From an uncultured Acidobacteriota bacterium (GTDB lineage Bacteria > Acidobacteriota > UBA6911): 35,178 nucleotides of DNA. Every line of letters begins with the position of its first letter. Position 1 is the stretch's first letter. Below the pieces are notes generated by a model. That model was not told where the DNA came from, made no database searches, and saw only the letters and a program-made list of their open reading frames with translations. Where the stretch lies: the NCBI GenBank assembly GCA_963827655.1, contig CAWHCF010000048.1, forward strand, positions 1-35,178, given 5' to 3'. This document shows positions 1-8,786 of this stretch, piece by piece. The position numbers were made by a program, and so were the translations under genes.

Positions 1-220
1 CCCACTGCGCCACGGCCTCGAGTACCCGTTCTGCGTCTGATCAAAGGGCAATACTTCAAATCCCTATCTTCCGCAGCAGGAGATCACCTTCAACCGCGGG
101 GAGAAGCCCGACTTCGCCCTCAGCGACGAGGGCCGTCGTTCGGCAACACGCAGGCGATCGGTGGCTGGTAGCATAACCCAAACAACCGCAGCCCATCGGC
201 AATGGCTTGTGGGACTGGCG

Positions 221-447
221 CTACCGGTGCTCGAGAAACTCTTCAAGTGATAGCCCGATGTCGTTCGCGATCTGCCGTAGTAAACGCCGGTGAGATATCG
301 CGTCCCGGGTGAAAAGGTACGGTAGTTACCCGACCGTCGGAATGGGCAAATTGTTTCTGCGAACCGCGCTGTCGCAATTCGGTGAAGCCCGAAGCGCTGG
401 AGAATTGCCACCACCTCACGAGGTTTGAGGACTGGCGGCTTGGGCAT
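221..447 (-). pseudogene. hicA: HicA family mRNase toxin with two +1 frameshifts (pseudogene or sequencing error)
   Basis: Joining three frames gives MPKPPVLKPREVVAILQRFGFTELRQRGSQKQFAHSDGRVTTVPFHPGRDISPALLRQIANDIGLSLEEFLEHR*. Extra bases at ccc 388-390 and aaa 282-284. The GSH motif reads GSQ. Starts 3 nt after the hicB stop. Confidence 0.85.
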
Positions 448-450
448 CGG

Positions 451-660
451 TCAGTCGACTTGGACGGTCTGAATGCCAACAAACTCACTTTCGAGCTCGG
501 GCTCACCGTCTTCAAGCAGCATGGATATGACCTCGCTAAGGTTGACATTGAGCTCGTCGAGCGTTTCGGCCTGGCTGTGTGCGCCGGGGAATCCGGGTAC
601 ATGCCCGACGTACAGGCCAGTCTCGGGATCGCGTTCAACCACCGCCGTGTAGCGTTTCAA
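451..660 (-). CDS. hicB: HicB family antitoxin (short form, no obvious DNA-binding domain)
   Basis: YTAVVERDPETGLYVGHVPGFPGAHSQAETLDELNVNLSEVISMLLE is the HicB partial RNase H fold. TTG start at 660 after a GAGG RBS; the track ORF is over-extended to 744. Confidence 0.9.
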   Translation of the reverse strand: MKRYTAVVERDPETGLYVGHVPGFPGAHSQAETLDELNVNLSEVISMLLEDGEPELESEFVGIQTVQVD

Positions 661-719
661 GGCACCTCTGGTAAATAGCAGTCTAAGTGTACAAGTTTCT
701 TTCCCGAGCTCTTCGCCAA

Positions 720-815
720 ATTTCATGCCGGCGATGAGCCGCAAGCGTCGTCATCACCCTTTCGACAGACCAATGTGGGCGCGTCGATTGTCGGTTCCAT
801 CGCGCCGTGTTAGGC
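720..815 (-). mobile_element. attC-like integron recombination site downstream of the TIR gene, degenerate R'
   Basis: Minus strand: GCCTAAC (R'') 4 nt after the stop, then GCGATG-G-AACCGAC ... GCGGCTCATCGC (L''/L' pairing with an extrahelical G). The expected GTTRRRY is replaced by ATGAAAT. Confidence 0.6.
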
Positions 816-820
816 CGCGT

Positions 821-1699
821 CTACTTGGTCAGCGCCCTCTCGATGGCTGCTGATATTTCATCGTAGACTCTCTCCTGCTCGCCCTCGGAAAGCGTCACAA
901 GAGGCGTCGGATTGATAGCCTGAAACTCGCGCAGCACCTTGTCGCGCCAGAATCTGCACGGCTTCAAGACAACCGGTATGATCCTCGTTCCCTGTTCCCT
1001 AGCCTTGGATAGGAGCTGCTGCAGCTCATTGTTAACGATGAAGTCCGACGCCAGAAAGTCGGCAGTTACCAACAAAACCGCCACCCCCGCGCGTCCGAGC
1101 GCCTCTTCGATCAGTGGCCTCCATTGATCTCCGGCGCCGAGTCTTTTGTCGGCCCACAGCTCAAGTAGGCCCTCCCTCTCAAGAGGCCTCAAGTGTACCT
1201 GCAGGCGCTCGAGGAAGGCCGAGTCTTTGTGACTGTAGCTCACGAAGACCGTACCTCGAGATTTCACAGTACTTGGACGCGTTCTGAACGGTTCTGGATC
1301 CCGGAGGGCCTCGGCGAGTAGTGGGCCAAGTCGTTGGGCAAACTCACGTAGCGATCCCAGGTCGTAGTAGAGGGTCCGCACACTCCGAAGGTCGAAGGGC
1401 ATGCGTTCCAGCTCAGAACTTTGTGAGACCAGGACGATCGGCTTCCTGAGAGCATGTGCGTACCCAAGCCGGTACATTACGTTGGAATTTGTTGTCGTGA
1501 TGTCGCAAACGATTAGATCGGCAGCCTCAATCTCTTCGTAAGCACGCTCAGTGATCGACCCAGCCTCCATCACTTCATCGAGGCGGTGTACTTCGGCTCC
1601 GACCGCGCTGCCAGCCGTCCGGATGGCGTTGCGAACTGCATCGAACTCTTCAAAGAATGGCTGGAACAGGAAGATCCTTTTGGATGGCTGTGTTTGCAT
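821..1699 (-). CDS. Nucleoside 2-deoxyribosyltransferase-like domain fused to a TIR (TIR_2) domain; candidate anti-phage protein
   Basis: N-terminal IFLFQPF...ADLIVCDITTTNSNVMYRLGYAHALRKP...PFDL is NDT-like (NxNVxYELG type). C-terminal VFVSYSHKD...LWAD...GDQW...FLASDFIVNNEL is TIR. Confidence 0.85.
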   Translation of the reverse strand: MQTQPSKRIFLFQPFFEEFDAVRNAIRTAGSAVGAEVHRLDEVMEAGSITERAYEEIEAADLIVCDITTTNSNVMYRLGYAHALRKPIVLVSQSSELERMPFDLRSVRTLYYDLGSLREFAQRLGPLLAEALRDPEPFRTRPSTVKSRGTVFVSYSHKDSAFLERLQVHLRPLEREGLLELWADKRLGAGDQWRPLIEEALGRAGVAVLLVTADFLASDFIVNNELQQLLSKAREQGTRIIPVVLKPCRFWRDKVLREFQAINPTPLVTLSEGEQERVYDEISAAIERALTK

Positions 1700-1706
1700 C
1701 TTGTCC

Positions 1707-1757
1707 GCCTAACCGGTCGCCGTGAGCGGCTGCCGCCGCTCGTCCACGTAGACGAGC
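1707..1757 (-). mobile_element. Right half of an attC-like site (L' and R' core) upstream of the TIR gene
   Basis: Minus strand GCCGCTCACGGCGACCG-GTTAGGC, then 7 nt to the ATG. Preceded by the hairpin GCTCGTC-N6-GACGAGC. No matching R'' visible at 1760-1807. Confidence 0.55.
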
Positions 1758-1807
1758 ACAGGTGATTCATTAACGCGAACAATACAAAAAAGGGTAGCTA
1801 ATCTTCT

Positions 1808-2194
1808 CTATCTCTTCTTCCCTTTTGCTTTTGCCCTTGCCAAATTTTCCTTTACCCTGAACTTCACAATCTTGTCTATCAGGTCGAAAGGAATTGGCTG
1901 ATCTAATGGAAACTTCACCGAACCCTTGGCTCCTTCATAAACAGAAAGCTCCTTCTTGAACTTGTCAATTCCTGTCGGCGTCGGATAAAACCCGATATGC
2001 TCTTTGAAAGCGGCAAAATGAACCAGATTACCCTTCAGAGTGAAGGTCGGGATTTGATAGTTGATGGTTTCTTCCGCGTCCGGCGCCGCTTTTCTGATCG
2101 TCATCCTGATCTTTTCCAGAATCTCTTGAACATCATTTGGGAAGCTCGCAATATACTGATCAATATTCTGGGGTGTTGCTGGTTTAGTTCTCAC
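1808..2194 (-). CDS. DUF1801 / YdhG-like protein
   Basis: IDQYIASFP...IRKAAPDAEETINYQIPTF...VHFAAFKEHIGFYP...KGSVKFPLDQPIP. GTG start after GAAGGAG. Visibly more AT-rich than the flanking genes. Confidence 0.9.
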   Translation of the reverse strand: MRTKPATPQNIDQYIASFPNDVQEILEKIRMTIRKAAPDAEETINYQIPTFTLKGNLVHFAAFKEHIGFYPTPTGIDKFKKELSVYEGAKGSVKFPLDQPIPFDLIDKIVKFRVKENLARAKAKGKKR

Positions 2195-2328
2195 AGTATC
2201 TCCTTCGTAGGTTCCTGAAAAACCTGGCGTACAGGTTTGTTTAGAGTCTCTCGCCAGAGTGACTGCTGGCAGTAGCTGGACAGAAACTCCGGAAAGAAAC
2301 CGTTGAACAAAACCTCTTTGCAACCGCC

Positions 2329-2901
2329 TCAACGTGTCTGCTCGACTTTTTCTTCGCCTTTGAAGCCGATTCGGCGACTGACGGTTTTCCCATCGGGGAA
2401 GTCGAGAAACTCCAGATAGAACTGGTCCTTGTCGTCCAGAATCAGCCGACCGGGCACAAATGTCTTACGATTTACGAACCTGATATAGGCTCCACCAGAC
2501 GCGTCCGCAACAACGTTGATGCGCTCGCGGTTCCGCGGGTCTCCAGTGCCGGGCGGTGCATCAAATCCCATAACCATTCGGCCGTTTGCCTGCAAGCCGA
2601 GTCCGAAGCGTTCCAGACCGTCGGGATCATTGATCACCAGGCCAACCGAAGGACTGATCCGTCCCCCTCCTTTGAGGTCAGGCACCGGGGCCCCAAGGAT
2701 AACCCGGTCACGGCCCTGCTCGTCTTCGACGATGAGTGTGCGAACTCGGACAATCCTCGCGTCCTGGGCGCTACTCGTCCAGGATGCCAAACTCAGCCCT
2801 AGCATTCCTGCTACGAGAGCGGCAGAGACAAAGCGTCCGGAGCGCACTCGTCTCTCGAGCGACTCAATTCGGTATCGTAACTCTTCGTGTAAGTCCGGCA
2901 T
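2329..2901 (-). CDS. Hypothetical membrane-anchored protein
   Basis: Short coiled coil (RIESLERRVR), hydrophobic segment, then beta-rich repeats (IVEDEQGRDRVILG, INDPDGLERFGLG). Start may be at 2901 or 2916. Confidence 0.75.
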   Translation of the reverse strand: MPDLHEELRYRIESLERRVRSGRFVSAALVAGMLGLSLASWTSSAQDARIVRVRTLIVEDEQGRDRVILGAPVPDLKGGGRISPSVGLVINDPDGLERFGLGLQANGRMVMGFDAPPGTGDPRNRERINVVADASGGAYIRFVNRKTFVPGRLILDDKDQFYLEFLDFPDGKTVSRRIGFKGEEKVEQTR

Positions 2902-2943
2902 AGGATTCACCATCATTAATTTGCAAGCATGTGAAGTTACAAC

Positions 2944-3031
2944 GGCCCTGACGGGGCTTCAATGGCGCGGGGCCTTCTTGTGATTGTTGACTGTGGAGCC
3001 GGGGCGCTGCCCGCAAGGCGTGGAAGCCCCG
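2944..3031. repeat. Degenerate REP-like palindromic element
   Basis: GCCCTGACGGGGC hairpin, GGGGCGCTGCCC, and inverted repeat CGGGGCTTC (2952-2960) / GAAGCCCCG (3023-3031). Confidence 0.4.
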
Positions 3032-3093
3032 GTTCGCCTGCAACGGCACTTTGCGTCTCTCATTCAGAAACTACGCAAGCGGCGTTCGCCGAA

Positions 3094-3124
3094 GCTGATA
3101 GCTGAGCGCTGATAGCTGACAGCT
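3094..3124. repeat. Heptamer tandem repeat (GCTGANN)x4
   Basis: gctgata gctgagc gctgata gctgaca gct. A related gtcagctgtcagct occurs at 24419-24432. Confidence 0.75.
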
Positions 3125-3292
3125 CAGCGCGGCCAGGCGTTTTTGATCATTTTTTGGGTTCGTTTTACTTCGATTACTTGGGCTTCTAATCAACGGGCTG
3201 CAACTCTCGACATAAAGACATTGCTCGAAAAACAAGATTTCACAGTCGTGTGATACGAAGACTCAGAATAAACGGTAAGCCGGTGGGGCTTT

Positions 3293-5791
3293 TTACTCGT
3301 GACGCAGTACTCGCAGCGGGTCCAGGCGCGAGGCCCGGCGCGCCGGCAGGAAACCGGCAGCGCAGGCCACCAGGGCAAGCAGGGCCGTCGCCGCAACGAT
3401 CGCGCGCGGGTCGTTCGGCGTTACTCCGTAGAGCTGGGCTTGAACGAAGCGCGAAAGAGCCAGTGATCCGGCTATGCCCAGACACGCTCCGATCCCTACC
3501 AGCACCAGCACTTCTCCCATGATCAACCAGACGACGCTGCCACTGCCCGCGCCCAGCGCCATCCGGATACCGATTTCCCGCGAGCGCCGGCCGACCAGGA
3601 AAGCCATGACTCCGTAAAGCCCGATCACCGCGATCAGCGTCGCCAGCGCGCCGAAACAGGTCGAGAGGCTTGCGACCAGGCGTTCGGTCGAGAGGTTGCG
3701 CACCACCTGTTCATCGAGGGTCCGCACTCCGACTACCGGAAGGTTCGGGTCCAGATTCCGGACGGCATTGCGGGCGGAGGCGACCATCGCCTCCGGCTTG
3801 CCGGAAGCGCGGACGTAGTACCACAAGGAAGTCGCCCAGGGCGTTTGCTGGTAGGGTCGATAGAATTGACGTCCGATCTCCTCGCGTATGTCCTGATACT
3901 TGAAGTCCTGCACGACCCCAATCACCTCGATGTCGGTCTTGGTGCCGGGGTCCGAACCCATGCCGATGCGACGCCCGACAGGGTCGCGCCCTGGGAAGTA
4001 TTGCCGGGCGAAGCGCTCGTTGATGATGACGACGCGGGGCGAATCCATGACGTCGCCCGGGCCGAAATCGCGGCCCGAGACGAGACGGATCCCGAGGGTG
4101 GAGAAGTAGCCGGAACCGATCCAGTTATTGTAGGCCCAGACATTCTCCCCCGGCTTGGGCTCGTAGCCCTCGACCGTAAGGTTTGAGTCCATCTCATAGC
4201 CGGAGACCAGGGCCATGGCGCCTCCGGAAGCCCCCTCAACGCCCGGGAGGGCGCGAAGAGTCTCCAGAAGTCGATCGTGGAAAGAACGCGTTCGCTCGGT
4301 TGTGTAGCCGTTGGCCGAGGGATCGAGATTGAACATCAGAATCCCCCCGGCGCGAAAACCTGGATTGAGCGTGTGAAGATTGTAAAGGCTGTGTACGAAC
4401 AAACCGGCCCCGACAAGAAGCAGCAACGAGAACGACACCTGAGCGACGACAAGCGTCTTGCGGAAAATCGCATGGACACCCGTAGCCACCGAGCCGGCCT
4501 GGTCTTTGAGTGTCACCAAAAGATCGGGCCGTGTCGCCTGGAGCGCCGGTGCCAGCCCGAACAGGATGCCCACCAGTGACGACACGCCGAGATTGAACAG
4601 CAGGAGGCGGAGGTCGATCTCGGGCGTAAACGTGAGCCGCGACACGTCAGTCGGAACCAGACGCAGCAGAAACGCCACGCTCCATCGTGCCACCAGAAGG
4701 CCGCCCAGGCCGCCGGCGACCGAGAGCGTCATGCTTTCGACCAGGAGCTGGCGAATGATCTGGCCACGACCAGCCCCGAGGGCGAGCCGGATGGCGATCT
4801 CCTTCTGCCGCGCCGTACCGCGGGCGAGTTGCAGATTGGCGAGGTTCGCGCACGCAATCAGCAGCACGAACCCGACCAGCGCCATCAGGACCCTCAGGGC
4901 ATTGCCGAACTGCCGGCGCAGGTAGGACTGGCCGGTTCCGCCTTTAAATACCGTCATGTTTGAAGCGAGAAATCGATCGCGCGCTTCCCTGGAAGCCCGC
5001 GCGAATCCTTGCTCCCGGACTTCCATCTCGATGACCTGCTTGTACAGTGGCTGTACGGCAGCGTTTGCCTGCTCAAGGCTGACGCCGGGCTTGAGACGCC
5101 CGAAGATCTGGAGGGTGCGGGTCCGGCGATCCTCCAGCAACTTCATTCCCGGAATCATTCTTTCCTGCATCGCGACCGGCACGAAAATCTGGGTAGCGCT
5201 CCCGAGTTCGACGCCGAAGAAGCCCTCGGCGGCCACACCCAGCACGGTAAAGGGCTGGTTGTTGACGACCACCGTCCCGTTGACGATGTTCGGGTCTGCG
5301 CCGAAGCGTGACTTCCAGTAGTCATAGCTCAGGACCACGACCGGGTGTCCGCCGGGCCTCTCGTCGTCTTCGGGGAGTAGCGGACGGCCGAGGGCCGCTG
5401 CGACACCCAGTACCTGAAAGTAGTTGCCGGACACCATCTCTGCCCTGACCCGCTCAACCTGGCCGCCGTATCCGAGACTACCCGAAGTGCCCTGGCGGCA
5501 AAGAAGACCTTCGAAGACTCCAGCCCGGTCGCGGAAGTCGCGGTACATCGGGTAAGACATCGCATTCAGGCCCCAGTTGGAACCGTAGTGCGAGCCCCGA
5601 GCGGCCATTTGAACGATGCGGGCAGGATCCTTGATAGGGAGCATGCGCAGGAGAAGCTGGTCGAGAAGGCTGAAGATTGCCGTGTTGGCGCCGATCCCCA
5701 ACCCGAGCGAAAGGATGGCAACCATCGCAAAGATCGGGGACCTTGCCAGGGATCGAATGGCGAAGCGAAAGTCTTGCCAGAGTGCGTTCAT
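3293..5791 (-). CDS. ADOP-type duplicated ABC transporter permease (MacB_PCD/FtsX x2), orphan
   Basis: LWQDFRFAIRSLARSPIF...LGIGANTAIFS, LLIACANLANL...RQKEIAIRLALGA, GLYGVMAFLVGRRSREIGIRMALGA, PARRASRLDP. Likely start MNALWQD at 5791. No adjacent ATPase gene. Confidence 0.95.
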   Translation of the reverse strand: MNALWQDFRFAIRSLARSPIFAMVAILSLGLGIGANTAIFSLLDQLLLRMLPIKDPARIVQMAARGSHYGSNWGLNAMSYPMYRDFRDRAGVFEGLLCRQGTSGSLGYGGQVERVRAEMVSGNYFQVLGVAAALGRPLLPEDDERPGGHPVVVLSYDYWKSRFGADPNIVNGTVVVNNQPFTVLGVAAEGFFGVELGSATQIFVPVAMQERMIPGMKLLEDRRTRTLQIFGRLKPGVSLEQANAAVQPLYKQVIEMEVREQGFARASREARDRFLASNMTVFKGGTGQSYLRRQFGNALRVLMALVGFVLLIACANLANLQLARGTARQKEIAIRLALGAGRGQIIRQLLVESMTLSVAGGLGGLLVARWSVAFLLRLVPTDVSRLTFTPEIDLRLLLFNLGVSSLVGILFGLAPALQATRPDLLVTLKDQAGSVATGVHAIFRKTLVVAQVSFSLLLLVGAGLFVHSLYNLHTLNPGFRAGGILMFNLDPSANGYTTERTRSFHDRLLETLRALPGVEGASGGAMALVSGYEMDSNLTVEGYEPKPGENVWAYNNWIGSGYFSTLGIRLVSGRDFGPGDVMDSPRVVIINERFARQYFPGRDPVGRRIGMGSDPGTKTDIEVIGVVQDFKYQDIREEIGRQFYRPYQQTPWATSLWYYVRASGKPEAMVASARNAVRNLDPNLPVVGVRTLDEQVVRNLSTERLVASLSTCFGALATLIAVIGLYGVMAFLVGRRSREIGIRMALGAGSGSVVWLIMGEVLVLVGIGACLGIAGSLALSRFVQAQLYGVTPNDPRAIVAATALLALVACAAGFLPARRASRLDPLRVLRHE

Positions 5792-5851
5792 GAGTAATGA
5801 GACGTAGGATCGGCGCCGTCGGTTAGCAAGACCGGCCTTCGGTCGAAAGGT

Positions 5852-5894
5852 TACCAAATACCACCAAGACACAAGGACACGAAGAAACGCTAAG
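5852..5894. repeat. Half copy of the 9-bp-periodic palindromic intergenic element
   Basis: taccaaataccaccaagacacaaggacacgaagaaacgctaag matches the arm seen at 15023 and 24481. Confidence 0.8.
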
Positions 5895-5906
5895 TCACGA
5901 CGCCGG

Positions 5907-8786
5907 TTACCTGGAGACAGCGCCCTGTTTCGGAACCAGGGCGGCGCTCGACGCAACCATCAGTCTCCAATTCTCGATCGGAGTCCCCCTCGTGTTCAGT
6001 CGAGACGTCAGGTAAAACAATCGCTGAGTTCCTGGAGCGTCAGGCGCCTGCTCAAAGCGCTGCATCAGGTAATAAGGCGGGATCGACTGGTAATACAGCG
6101 CCGCCTTTACAGTGAGCTTTGAAGCGTCAATACCCTTCGGCAACTGTGACATCGGGATCTCGTAACGCACGACGCTCGCGCCGCTGCCGTTGAGATAAAC
6201 CGGATCGTCCGCGGCTGCGCCTTCCGGAAAAGTCGAGTGCAGAAACTCTCCCGAGAATGAATTCGGCGCAGGCCCCTTAGCCGTCCAGCCCTTGGGCAGC
6301 AAGCGATTGTCTTTCGGAATCTTGTTTCGACGGATGAAGCTCGTGGTGAAGTCGCCGTTCGAGTCCGTCACCAGCTCCTCATAGATCTGAACTTGTTTTG
6401 CCGAAGTGATCGGATGCTCTTTGCCATAGAAGTGCGGCTGGAAGGGTCCCTTCTTGTGGCCGGCGGTCCCGACGTACTCGGTTTCGAGAATGTTGCCTTC
6501 GTTGTCGACTATGAACCCGGCTTCATTCGTTCGCCCGGAAGACCAAACGATCTTTGGCTGCCTGTTCTTCGGGTCGATGACCCGCGTGTCCATCACGTCA
6601 AGCTCAATAAATGCTCGCCGGAAGCCAACTCCACTCGGGAAGCGGTGGCCGACTTTGTTCGTGACAGTCACTTCGGCCGTGAGTCTTTGCGCCTGGATCG
6701 TCGGCTGCGAGACTTCAATGGTCGCGGTGTCGTTCTGAGCGGCTTGAACGAAATTAGAGATCGCGTTTTGCAGATCGTTGTCGAGCGTGCTCATGTAGTC
6801 GCTCTTGCGGACGCCCAGGATGCCATTGGAGTAATTCGGCGGCGTGCTGGCGTCGGGCGTCATGAACTGGTTGAACATCTCGAGCAGAAAGATGTTGAGG
6901 CCCTGCAGCTGGTGGCGCACGAATCCTTTGTCGCGGAATCGCGCGCGAATCTGATCGAACGGCGCGGTGTTTTCGGCCGCCGGATAGGTGTCATCCTGTA
7001 CGTCTGCGAACGCCGTTTGAATTACCTTCACATCGACCTTGTTGTGCGCGTTTGCGTAGCTGGTCGACATGTGACAATCCTGGCAGGACCTGGCATTCGG
7101 GCCGGGACTAAAATCGGTCTGATACTGGCTATTGAGCCATTCGAGATAAGTCACCTGTTCGAGGGAATGCCCGAACGGTTTTTGGTCCATCACCGGCAGA
7201 TTGATCGTGTGACAGTTGCCGCACAAGCGCGAATCTTTTATGTAGTCGTTGTACTTGGGATCGATACCGAGCGCCTCCTTCATCGGATGAGGCGAGATGT
7301 CCTTGTCTTCGAACGGGCCAAATATCTCGGAGGCTTTCCCGGTGGTGAACTGGCCGGTGATGTAGTGATTCAAGAAGTACTGAAGGGGATCCTGGCCTGG
7401 CGGCGTATGGTCCTTGACTATGTGATGACAGGAAGCGCAGCTAACGCCGTCACGCGCGAGCGCGCCATACTTGAAGTCTCTACTGGTGAGGTCGGTATTG
7501 TAGACGAAATCGAGCTTGAAGTTTGGCTCGGGAACTTTGTTATCCGGAGAAGCCGGATCATACCCGTTATCGGCGTCGAGCTGACGCTTGCCCATTACTC
7601 CGTGACAGCGAAAGCACATGTTGACTATTGTCTGCTGATCCGCAGGTCTGTCTTTCAGGTAGGCCAGCTCGCTGTCCAGTTGCGCGTAGAAGATCGGATC
7701 CCTTCCCGCGAGTCCCATCGGAGACCATCGCCATTCGCCGTAAGGCGACACGTTCACCGGGTTATTCGAGTTGCCTTCGAGAATCATCGTATACTTCTGG
7801 CCGAACCACGCGTTTCCGCTGTGGCAGGACATGCACGAATCGGACGTGATGAATTGTTCGGCGCCGCCGGGCCCGGCTACGACGTGGTCATATGTTTCCG
7901 CCGGCATCACCTGAAGGCCGTCGCGGATCGGCACGTCTTTGAAGAATTTCAGAAACTCGTCGCGGGCAGCCGGCTCGACGCGCGCCATCGCCGGCCTGAG
8001 CTTGAGCATTCTGTGACCGGGAGCCAGATCGGCGAGCACTTTCGACTCCGGCGGCGGCGGGTTTCTCCAGGTGTCGTCGATGAAAAAGCTGAGCGGATTT
8101 CCCGGGAAGCCCTTGATGTTGTTGAGCGATGCGAAGGTGAACTCCTTTTCCGAAGACGCATGGCAATGGAGGCACGTGAGTCCGAAGCCTTCGTTGAGCA
8201 CAGCAAACGGCGGCTTGTAGCTATCGCTCGGCCTGGGCATCGGCGGACTGCTGGTCCATAGGCCGCCCCAGAACCATCCGTCCTTCGACGCCTTCGAATC
8301 TTTGATCATCACGGTCCAGGAAACCGGGTCGAGTTGCTTCCCTTCGTATCTGGCGGCCGGAGCAGGCGCGTACATCTCTTTCACGATCATCGCGCCGTCA
8401 GGGAGGTTGTCGATGCGTCCATTGATCAGCCACTTCATAATCGCAGGCGAATAATAGACTCGAACCGCCGGATGAGTGCCGAGGTATTCCGAATCAATAT
8501 AGGGTCCGGTGTCTCGCACGGTTTTGTCGACGCACCAGCCGAGCTTCACGTATTCGGTGTTTTGAAGGAAAGCGAGGAGCTTGTCGTGAAAACCGTCCGG
8601 CGACATGGAACTCGGCAACGGCAGCGGGTTCTCCTTCGCGTCGGGGCACTGGGCTATTGCCGTCGCGGACTGCGTTTCAATCGACGCTATTGAGCCGGCC
8701 GATGCATTGCGCCCTGGTGCTGCGGTCGCGAAGCAGATCACGAACACGTAAAACACGAGCAGAAGAGACTTGATTGATTTACTCAC
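5907..8786 (-). CDS. Exported multiheme c-type cytochrome with N-terminal cytochrome P460-like domain (6 CxxCH)
   Basis: Signal peptide. P460-like VRVYYSP...LPDGAMIVKEMY...MIKDS...GWFW...CLHCH, followed by CMSCH, CFRCH, CASCH, CGNCH, CQDCH and a C-terminal NKVGHRFPSGVGFRR domain. Confidence 0.85.
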   Translation of the reverse strand: MSKSIKSLLLVFYVFVICFATAAPGRNASAGSIASIETQSATAIAQCPDAKENPLPLPSSMSPDGFHDKLLAFLQNTEYVKLGWCVDKTVRDTGPYIDSEYLGTHPAVRVYYSPAIMKWLINGRIDNLPDGAMIVKEMYAPAPAARYEGKQLDPVSWTVMIKDSKASKDGWFWGGLWTSSPPMPRPSDSYKPPFAVLNEGFGLTCLHCHASSEKEFTFASLNNIKGFPGNPLSFFIDDTWRNPPPPESKVLADLAPGHRMLKLRPAMARVEPAARDEFLKFFKDVPIRDGLQVMPAETYDHVVAGPGGAEQFITSDSCMSCHSGNAWFGQKYTMILEGNSNNPVNVSPYGEWRWSPMGLAGRDPIFYAQLDSELAYLKDRPADQQTIVNMCFRCHGVMGKRQLDADNGYDPASPDNKVPEPNFKLDFVYNTDLTSRDFKYGALARDGVSCASCHHIVKDHTPPGQDPLQYFLNHYITGQFTTGKASEIFGPFEDKDISPHPMKEALGIDPKYNDYIKDSRLCGNCHTINLPVMDQKPFGHSLEQVTYLEWLNSQYQTDFSPGPNARSCQDCHMSTSYANAHNKVDVKVIQTAFADVQDDTYPAAENTAPFDQIRARFRDKGFVRHQLQGLNIFLLEMFNQFMTPDASTPPNYSNGILGVRKSDYMSTLDNDLQNAISNFVQAAQNDTATIEVSQPTIQAQRLTAEVTVTNKVGHRFPSGVGFRRAFIELDVMDTRVIDPKNRQPKIVWSSGRTNEAGFIVDNEGNILETEYVGTAGHKKGPFQPHFYGKEHPITSAKQVQIYEELVTDSNGDFTTSFIRRNKIPKDNRLLPKGWTAKGPAPNSFSGEFLHSTFPEGAAADDPVYLNGSGASVVRYEIPMSQLPKGIDASKLTVKAALYYQSIPPYYLMQRFEQAPDAPGTQRLFYLTSRLNTRGTPIENWRLMVASSAALVPKQGAVSR

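Follow-up and report, generated by a model that had tools for sequence, protein, structure and literature searches.

Is a lone TIR-domain gene at the end of a contig from an uncultured Acidobacteriota bacterium (lineage UBA6911; assembly GCA_963827655.1, contig CAWHCF010000048.1) an integron gene cassette, and does it serve in phage defence? Immunity in bacteria, plants and animals relies centrally on TIR enzymes, and integron cassettes have recently been shown to be stores of compact defence genes; the family to which this gene belongs joins both themes, with a partner-less TIR domain fused to an NDT/DNPH1-type fold in a recurrent cassette. The stretch of DNA analysed, hereafter the window, is the entire contig C48 (35,178 bases) of a genome of 8.18 Mb in 53 contigs that is 90% complete; the gene lies at 821..1699 on the minus strand in the list of open reading frames (ORFs), with its stop codon at 821-823 and its ATG at 1697-1699, encodes 292 amino acids (aa) and stops only 820 nucleotides (nt) from the contig end. 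An earlier sequence-only reading of this DNA described it as a mobile, standalone defence cassette. The family works without a partner gene, is patchily spread and is repeatedly packaged as an integron cassette; for the locus as a whole, the explanation that on balance serves best is an orphaned ex-cassette encoding a TIR-equipped dimer, with a likely role in phage defence of the abortive-infection type.

The protein appears to be cytoplasmic and contains two domains, and the NDT-like and TIR assignments made in the earlier reading are borne out. The C-terminal TIR domain (residues about 148-292; 824..1258, minus strand) matches Pfam TIR_2 over residues 151-262 (E 1.3e-17; 64.8 bits against a cut-off of 28) and the PADLOC ThsB model PDLC00420 over residues 150-252 (E 9.9e-23); the C-terminal half of the family profile matches the TIR NADases BtpA-like 4lzp, AbTIR 7uwg/8g83 and PdTIR 3h16. 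Glu225 (codon 1025-1027, minus strand), which we take to be the catalytic glutamate of TIR NADases, lies in a NEL motif and is present in all 109 relatives sampled. The N-terminal Rossmann-type domain (residues about 1-135; 1295..1699, minus strand) is of the kind found in nucleoside deoxyribosyltransferases (NDT), DNPH1 and MilB; its Pfam match to Nuc_deoxyrib_tr over residues 43-95 (E 2.7e-5) reaches 24.7 bits and falls below the cut-off of 28.8, and the assignment is supported by fold and family profile. Foldseek matches this domain to MilB 4ohr (TMt 0.65) and NDT 7o62 (TMt 0.66), and also to 9emx/8pqq, and positions 22-89 of the family profile match DNPH1/Rcl, with the motif N-V-M-Y-E-L-G aligned on the G-V-G-Y-E-L-G of Rcl. 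Among the 109 relatives TIR_2 is found in every one, Nuc_deoxyrib_tr in 99 and PF10137 in 55, the last two at E <= 0.001. The AlphaFold2 model (mean predicted local distance difference test score, pLDDT, 89.5) features two alpha/beta domains with a long helix and a linker between them; whole-chain Foldseek matches to two-domain dehydrogenases and to carbon monoxide dehydrogenase were disregarded, as their TM-scores were 0.22-0.28.

The glutamate of the Y-E-L/I-G motif is the nucleophile in NDT and DNPH1. A paper on Thoeris describes the active sites of ThsB, NDT and DNPH1 as alike (PMC11204291). At the corresponding column, residue 77, Glu is carried by 103 of the 109 relatives, Arg by 3, Gln by 2 and Ala by 1; the window protein has Arg77 (codon 1469-1471, minus strand; MYRLG), as do its two closest relatives, and the homologs at the metagenomic loci L120 and L121 likewise read MYRLG. 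Because of this Glu77 to Arg change the N-domain of the window copy is probably just a scaffold or regulator, judging from the residues, which would leave the TIR domain as the sole catalytic part. Most relatives keep the nucleophile Glu, and their N-domain may work on nucleotides as a second N-glycosidase. A homodimer is predicted with a score of 0.56 (best control 0.00); of 30 proteins whose solved structure is a same-chain pair 20 reach this value, as does 1 of 23 solved as single chains. Agreement between the runs is >=69% of contacts, the partner pLDDT is >=76, and the predicted interface is formed by N-domain residues 70-84 and 101-104 on the NDT-type helix. This modelled pairing may only reflect likeness to solved NDT/DNPH1 dimers.

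An integron attC site is built of an R'' inverse core (RYYYAAC), L'', L' and an R' core (GTTRRRY), and a cassette ends in the GTT-bearing R'. Two attC covariance models were built here from real integrons: R1 from 51 aligned sites (arrays L102-L106, L108, L109 and L112, from the cassette sides of 20 integrases) and R2 from 13 short, more varied sites; the integrase loci of the same family L100 and L101, which show no clear cassette arrays, were left out. Both models detect attCs outside their training sets; the training of R1 is mostly of one genus-level attC type, and the two together cover few types. They were used in place of a strict heuristic (RYYYAAC...GTTRRRY, >=6/7 complementary, with a DNA fold), and of a relaxed version that followed it; the strict form missed most real arrays, and its five matches in the window genome, none of them on C48, equalled the number in the shuffled genome.

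At least 1306 full-length relatives of about 290-300 aa were found, from many phyla; 80 genome and 80 metagenome loci were collected, among which 48 are distinct and hold a full or nearly full-length homolog. In 8 of these 48 the gene has an attC (E <= 0.05, R1 or R2) no more than about 120 nt away, and such counts are lower bounds because R1 and R2 cover few attC types. The homolog stands between two attCs of a 19-site array in L046, is flanked by attCs on both sides in the arrays of L016 and L025, is followed by an attC directly after its stop in L017, L024, L135 and L122 (=L123), and is preceded by one directly before its start in L022; in several of these loci the stop codon falls within R''. 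The lineages in which the homolog is a cassette include Beta-, Gamma- and Alphaproteobacteria, Chlorobium and others. In L122/L123 the homolog (61% identity to the window protein) is the first cassette behind an integron integrase, whose gene ends about 240 nt upstream and matches TIGR02249 with 206 bits over its C-terminal half; GTTAGAC lies 13 nt ahead of the GTG start, a 58-nt attC ending in GTTAGGC follows the gene, and the second cassette encodes a CPBP-type intramembrane protease, followed by its own attC. The integrase of this locus (L122 1-2480, L123 1-2468) is oriented the same way as the cassettes, and its N-terminal half is unmatched by the model in that frame. L020 has an IntI-type gene (166 bits) in divergent orientation about 300 nt upstream of its homolog, and an attC is present too in five further loci in which only the TIR part is matched (L037, L079, L042, L065 and L142).

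Integrons also occur elsewhere in the phylum: IntI scores above the TIGR02249 cut-off in 93 of 301 genomes, a tally that takes in the unpublished G152, G049 and G024, on which no other result depends, and in 2 of 6 genomes of the same family. Many of these IntI genes are found 1-2 kb or less from the end of a contig, the position expected if assemblies break at attC arrays. Within the 90% complete window genome the best TIGR02249 match reaches 84.6 bits against a cut-off of 265, so that no integron integrase was detected; four attC matches at E <= 0.1 were found, two of them textbook isolated sites, namely C2:51-128 (L207; R2 E 1.3e-6; 50 nt from a contig end) and C34:98275-98332 (L208; R2 E 2.1e-5; between ORFs of 317 aa and 163 aa). 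These two sites indicate that cassette-derived DNA is present even without a detected integrase; the weaker candidates are C40:5268-5321 and C36:38583-38644.

At the TIR locus itself two heptamers bracket the gene on the minus strand: GTTAGGC (1707..1713), which fits the R' core and is separated from the ATG by 7 nt, and its exact complement GCCTAAC (809..815), which fits the R'' inverse core and begins 5 nt past the stop, not 4 nt as first described; the tight bracketing otherwise stands. The L'' and L' boxes that the sequence-only reading placed after GCCTAAC were not recovered: R'' alone is present of the downstream attC that a functional cassette requires, with no L'', L' or R' behind it. 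No GTT occurs on the coding strand in the 181 nt downstream of the gene, so no R' is possible there, and no AAC occurs in the 111 nt upstream, before GTTAGGC, which excludes the R'' of a preceding attC as well. The single-stranded DNA fold downstream of the stop is no better than that of shuffled sequence (z -0.51, -0.91 and +0.88), compared with -2.93 and -2.45 for true attCs beside homologs. With filters off, R1 and R2 have no match in window 1-6000 and none that qualifies as an attC on C48, the best over the whole window being E 0.6 (R1) and 1.3 (R2), both far from the TIR gene; the spacer between GCCTAAC and the start of the downstream hicB-like gene (661..808, minus strand) holds no GTT, no above-chance hairpin and no covariance-model match, so that the remainder of an attC is missing. 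A more distant candidate R', GTTGAAC at 633-639 (183 nt span), was rejected, as it lies within the hicB-like gene, is complementary at 4 of 7 positions and has no support from R1 or R2. An array next to intI/attI or to other attCs was not found at the locus, as far as the contig extends; the 5' GTTRRRY boundary, the compact ORF and the lack of a promoter of its own, all typical of a cassette, were (0 sigma-70-like sites in window 400-2500 by a scan for the consensus only).

Whether the two heptamers are remnants of a cassette or a chance pair depends on how strictly they are defined. Taken as degenerate cores, both flanks are present at 23 of the 29,741 mechanical ORFs of the genome against 18.7 expected, and exactly complementary pairs at 3 against about 1.4 expected; flanking by the degenerate motif is no more than chance. 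Taken exactly, GTTAGGC precedes 28 of these ORFs and GCCTAAC follows 20, and both occur at one, the TIR gene, against an expectation of 0.019; the heptamers are the same as the consensus R' (GTTAGGC) and R'' (GCCTAAC) of real attCs of the phylum. Their distances from the gene also correspond to those of true cassettes of the family, in which R'' may begin inside the stop codon or as far as about 86 nt beyond it, and GTTAGAC or GTTAGGC lies 13-34 nt ahead of the starts of homologs. We infer that GTTAGGC would be the remnant of the 5' boundary of a cassette. A count by motif only over the homolog loci gives 10/48 upstream, 8/48 downstream and 3/48 on both sides, and 45, 31 and 17 of 286 for neighbour ORFs, many of which are themselves cassettes, so that this comparison is uninformative. 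GTTAGGC and its complement together occur 223 times on both strands of the 8.18 Mb, several-fold below a uniform expectation of ~1000.

The closest relatives show how the window copy is placed today. The metagenomic locus L120 encodes a protein 95% identical over the 240 residues seen, and blastn aligns L120 1-729 with window 3048-2321, which covers the upstream 195-aa gene (2329..2916, minus strand; no Pfam match), at 93.6%, and L120 741-1501 with window 1739-979, which runs into the TIR gene from a point 40 nt ahead of the ATG, at 96.6%. Window 1740-2320 is absent from L120, where the TIR gene directly follows the 195-aa gene; since L120 shares this neighbour, the TIR gene has a fixed chromosomal place in this lineage. 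At the edges of the 581-nt insert no attC and no obvious repeats were seen. A full-length homolog was found in 0 of 136 other genomes of the class, and the 195-aa neighbour in 0 of 50 other genomes of the family, the latter indicating that the entire contig end is accessory. In the more distant L121 (77% identity) the homolog is preceded by GTTAGAC at 20 nt and followed by the exact complement, GTCTAAC, at 88 nt; between GTCTAAC and the contig end there is no R', and the neighbours, rhodanese-like (by eye) and MauE/DoxX-type, are not those of an integron. The homolog at L121 894-1770 is split into pieces of 256 aa and 63 aa in different frames.

From this evidence the window copy is probably an ex-cassette with a truncated attC, the loss of which was probably by deletion because R'' is intact. 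Several observations weigh against this view and against the defence role attached to it. There is no attC at the TIR locus, so that former cassette status stands on two heptamers and the habit of the family; an attC that had decayed is not expected to leave R'' perfect, and a deletion must be assumed; the upstream heptamer of L120 is GTTAGGG, in which the Y of GTTRRRY is broken; and an empty site that would define the edges of insertion was not found in the 136 class or 50 family genomes. The dN/dS between the window copy and L120 is 0.022/0.068 = 0.32, a value from 23 changes only; the window protein lacks the motif Glu of its N-domain; the genes next to it (DUF1801, the 195-aa gene and a broken hicAB) do not make a defence island; and of the 36 homolog loci outside cassettes only about 10, as we read the table, have a defence- or mobile-type gene among their nearest four ORFs, and in several the neighbours are ordinary housekeeping genes. 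The heptamers could instead be a coincidence beside an accessory TIR gene of a variable region that was never a cassette here, a reading that is unlikely yet deserves to be taken seriously: it accords with the chance-level count of degenerate motifs, with the want of any other attC feature at the locus, with the GTTAGGG of L120 and with the very many genes scanned, among which some exact coincidences are expected. It would nonetheless have to produce an exact consensus pair expected far less than once per genome, at distances that match true cassettes, in a family that is attC-flanked at 8 of 48 loci and in which GTTAGAC also stands just ahead of the start of relatives with 61-77% identity in other contexts.

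That the window copy is a cassette still able to move, with an attC too atypical for R1, R2 and the GTT/AAC rule, is very improbable; R1 and R2 were trained on few attC types, and the attC of L122 was missed until R2 was built, but the 181 nt without GTT, the lack of a stem-loop above shuffles, the lack of an IntI over the cut-off in the genome and the syntenic position in L120 all speak against it. The mobility claimed in the sequence-only reading therefore holds for the family, by its attC-flanked loci and by L122/L123 behind an integrase, and does not hold for the window copy; with no complete attC, no IntI over the cut-off and synteny with L120, the copy is probably no longer movable by integron recombination, and orphaned ex-cassette is a better label for it than mobile cassette. 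Taken alone the locus is a modest result, an accessory gene and no mobile element; it may also serve as a case of a cassette stranded in the chromosome, and kept there, after loss of its recombination site.

As to function, the preferred reading of a TIR-equipped dimer would proceed as follows: preformed dimers, held together by the N-domain, would assemble through their TIR domains upon a phage cue, after which the TIR Glu would cleave NAD+, resulting either in its depletion or in an ADP-ribose-type product; by analogy with other bacterial TIR systems the outcome would be phage defence of the abortive-infection type. No second gene appears to be needed, in agreement with the earlier reading, as clustering of 290 neighbour ORFs from 47 loci gave no shared family beyond near-identical contigs. 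Neither a Thoeris effector gene (ThsA, ThsI or similar) was found beside the TIR gene among the window neighbours and the 47 loci, nor a cyclase of the kind that marks CBASS and Pycsar among the neighbours of homologs. The 104 nearest ORFs of the 36 non-cassette loci were scanned, and 59 of them have no Pfam match. A Cap12/Pycsar-type TIR neighbour (PF10137, E 2e-37 and 9e-34) is present in the unrelated loci L010 (7577-8371) and L125 (152-967); these two neighbours cluster together. The neighbours in L014 are a DpnII-type nuclease, a Schlafen/AlbA_2 protein and a Mu-like protein, and further defence or mobile neighbours include AbiJ in L021, HD-CE in L074, HNH in L124, a SLOG protein in L029 and an integrase in L020. 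The surroundings of homologs, which the sequence-only reading had named as a check, are of both kinds: cassette arrays and the loci just named, and several housekeeping contexts. The neighbourhoods fit a mobile accessory gene and lend weak support to defence; relatives in viral contigs were not found, which bears neither way.

The protein might instead have nothing to do with phage, and be an enzyme of nucleotide or NAD+ housekeeping or salvage, or a toxin in other conflicts such as addiction or inter-bacterial competition; we consider this unlikely. The NDT, DNPH1 and MilB relatives are metabolic, cassettes also carry many genes without a defence role as well as toxin-antitoxin pairs, a hicAB pair adjoins the gene in the window, and some homologs sit among housekeeping genes. 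Against this stand the patchy, horizontally moved distribution (0/136 class genomes), the invariant catalytic Glu of the TIR domain, the best profile matches, which are to Thoeris ThsB and to CBASS/Pycsar TIR models, and the loci that adjoin a Cap12-type TIR gene, AbiJ, a DpnII-type nuclease or Schlafen; neither a signal peptide nor a partner for secretion was noticed, although no formal test for them was made.

Among known systems the nearest in domain content is type VIII Thoeris, which consists of a ThsB TIR protein and a ThsI effector with a CMP-hydrolase and tetratricopeptide repeats (TPR); the TIR protein makes canonical cyclic ADP-ribose (cADPR) upon infection and so activates ThsI, whose hydrolase is hypothesized by the authors to manipulate the nucleotide pool (10.64898/2025.12.03.692087). 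In the present family, too, a TIR enzyme is found together with a member of the N-glycosidase superfamily of NDT, MilB and DNPH1, ThsI being compared by its described domains. It differs in that both domains lie in one 292-aa chain with no second gene and no TPR by Pfam, and the window copy differs further by having Arg in place of the hydrolase-type Glu; by the criteria of a second gene and of TPR it is no member of Thoeris (types I-IV and VIII). With ThsB, AbTIR, BtpA-like and PdTIR the family shares TIR_2 and the invariant Glu of the NEL motif; unlike ThsB and the other bacterial TIR NADases it has no ThsA or other effector nearby and has a different N-terminal partner domain. With DNPH1/Rcl, MilB and the NDTs it shares the fold and motif of the N-domain and a predicted dimer through the same helix, whereas the window protein falls below the Pfam cut-off for that domain and is without the motif Glu. 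Single-protein TIR systems of E. coli that defend are reported in PMC11350192.

It is conceivable that the family is a single-chain, type VIII Thoeris-like system, in which the TIR domain senses infection and its cADPR-type product activates the fused DNPH1/MilB-like half, in cis or within the dimer, to strip bases from nucleoside monophosphates, possibly phage-modified (hydroxymethylated) ones; the window clade (Glu77 to Arg) would then be an NAD+-only derivative stranded after attC loss. This proposal is speculative and doubtful. If the defence role itself is true, the family would represent a TIR system that is complete in one very small protein, and a natural fusion of two enzyme types that are separate in type VIII Thoeris, in which cross-talk between NAD+ cleavage and N-glycosidase activity could be tested in one protein.

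Integron cassettes that encode phage defence are reportedly also the subject of Kieffer 2025 and Getz 2025. In Darracq et al. such cassettes bear compact, single-gene phage defence, described as "streamlined variants of known systems" (10.1101/2024.07.02.601686), and the homologs described here resemble them in being single-gene cassettes between attCs; the window copy, without attC and integrase, does not. TIR, Thoeris, NADase and deoxyribosyltransferase receive no mention in the main text of the same preprint (10.1101/2024.07.02.601686). The PADLOC candidate PDC-S66 has a profile of 282 positions with TIR at the same offset, and 106 of the 109 relatives match it at E <= 1e-5; these matches are weak (E 9e-14 at best and 8.7e-6 for the window copy) and extend over no more than the TIR part, so that PDC-S66 is not the same family. 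Its name occurs in two papers, without a description in the passages found. TIR enzymes of defence are known, and so are integron cassettes with defence genes. In the papers searched no test of an NDT/DNPH1-like-TIR fusion was found, nor any report that one recurs as a cassette; the supplementary tables of preprints may list such fusions.

The remaining genes around the TIR gene, like the gene itself and the 195-aa gene, are all on the minus strand. The 581-nt insert at 1740..2320 has a low GC content (44.8% against 56-57% around it) and bears a DUF1801 gene at about 1808-2191 (DUF1801 E 8.4e-16). Downstream of the TIR gene lie a hicB-like antitoxin gene at 451-660 (HicB_lk_antitox E 1.3e-5) and a hicA-like toxin gene in two frames at about 243-447 (HicA_toxin E 1.1e-8); beside the intact hicB this gene is divided between the frame of ORF 64-447, which holds the HicA-like N-terminus, and that of ORF 243-638, which holds the HicA_toxin domain, a split that reflects either a broken gene or an assembly error. 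The contig end has no exact overlap of >=12 nt with any of the 53 contigs. A second TIR-domain region is present in the same genome at C25:103190-103678 (L205), within a 383-aa open frame, and is 42% identical to residues 119-283 of the window protein.

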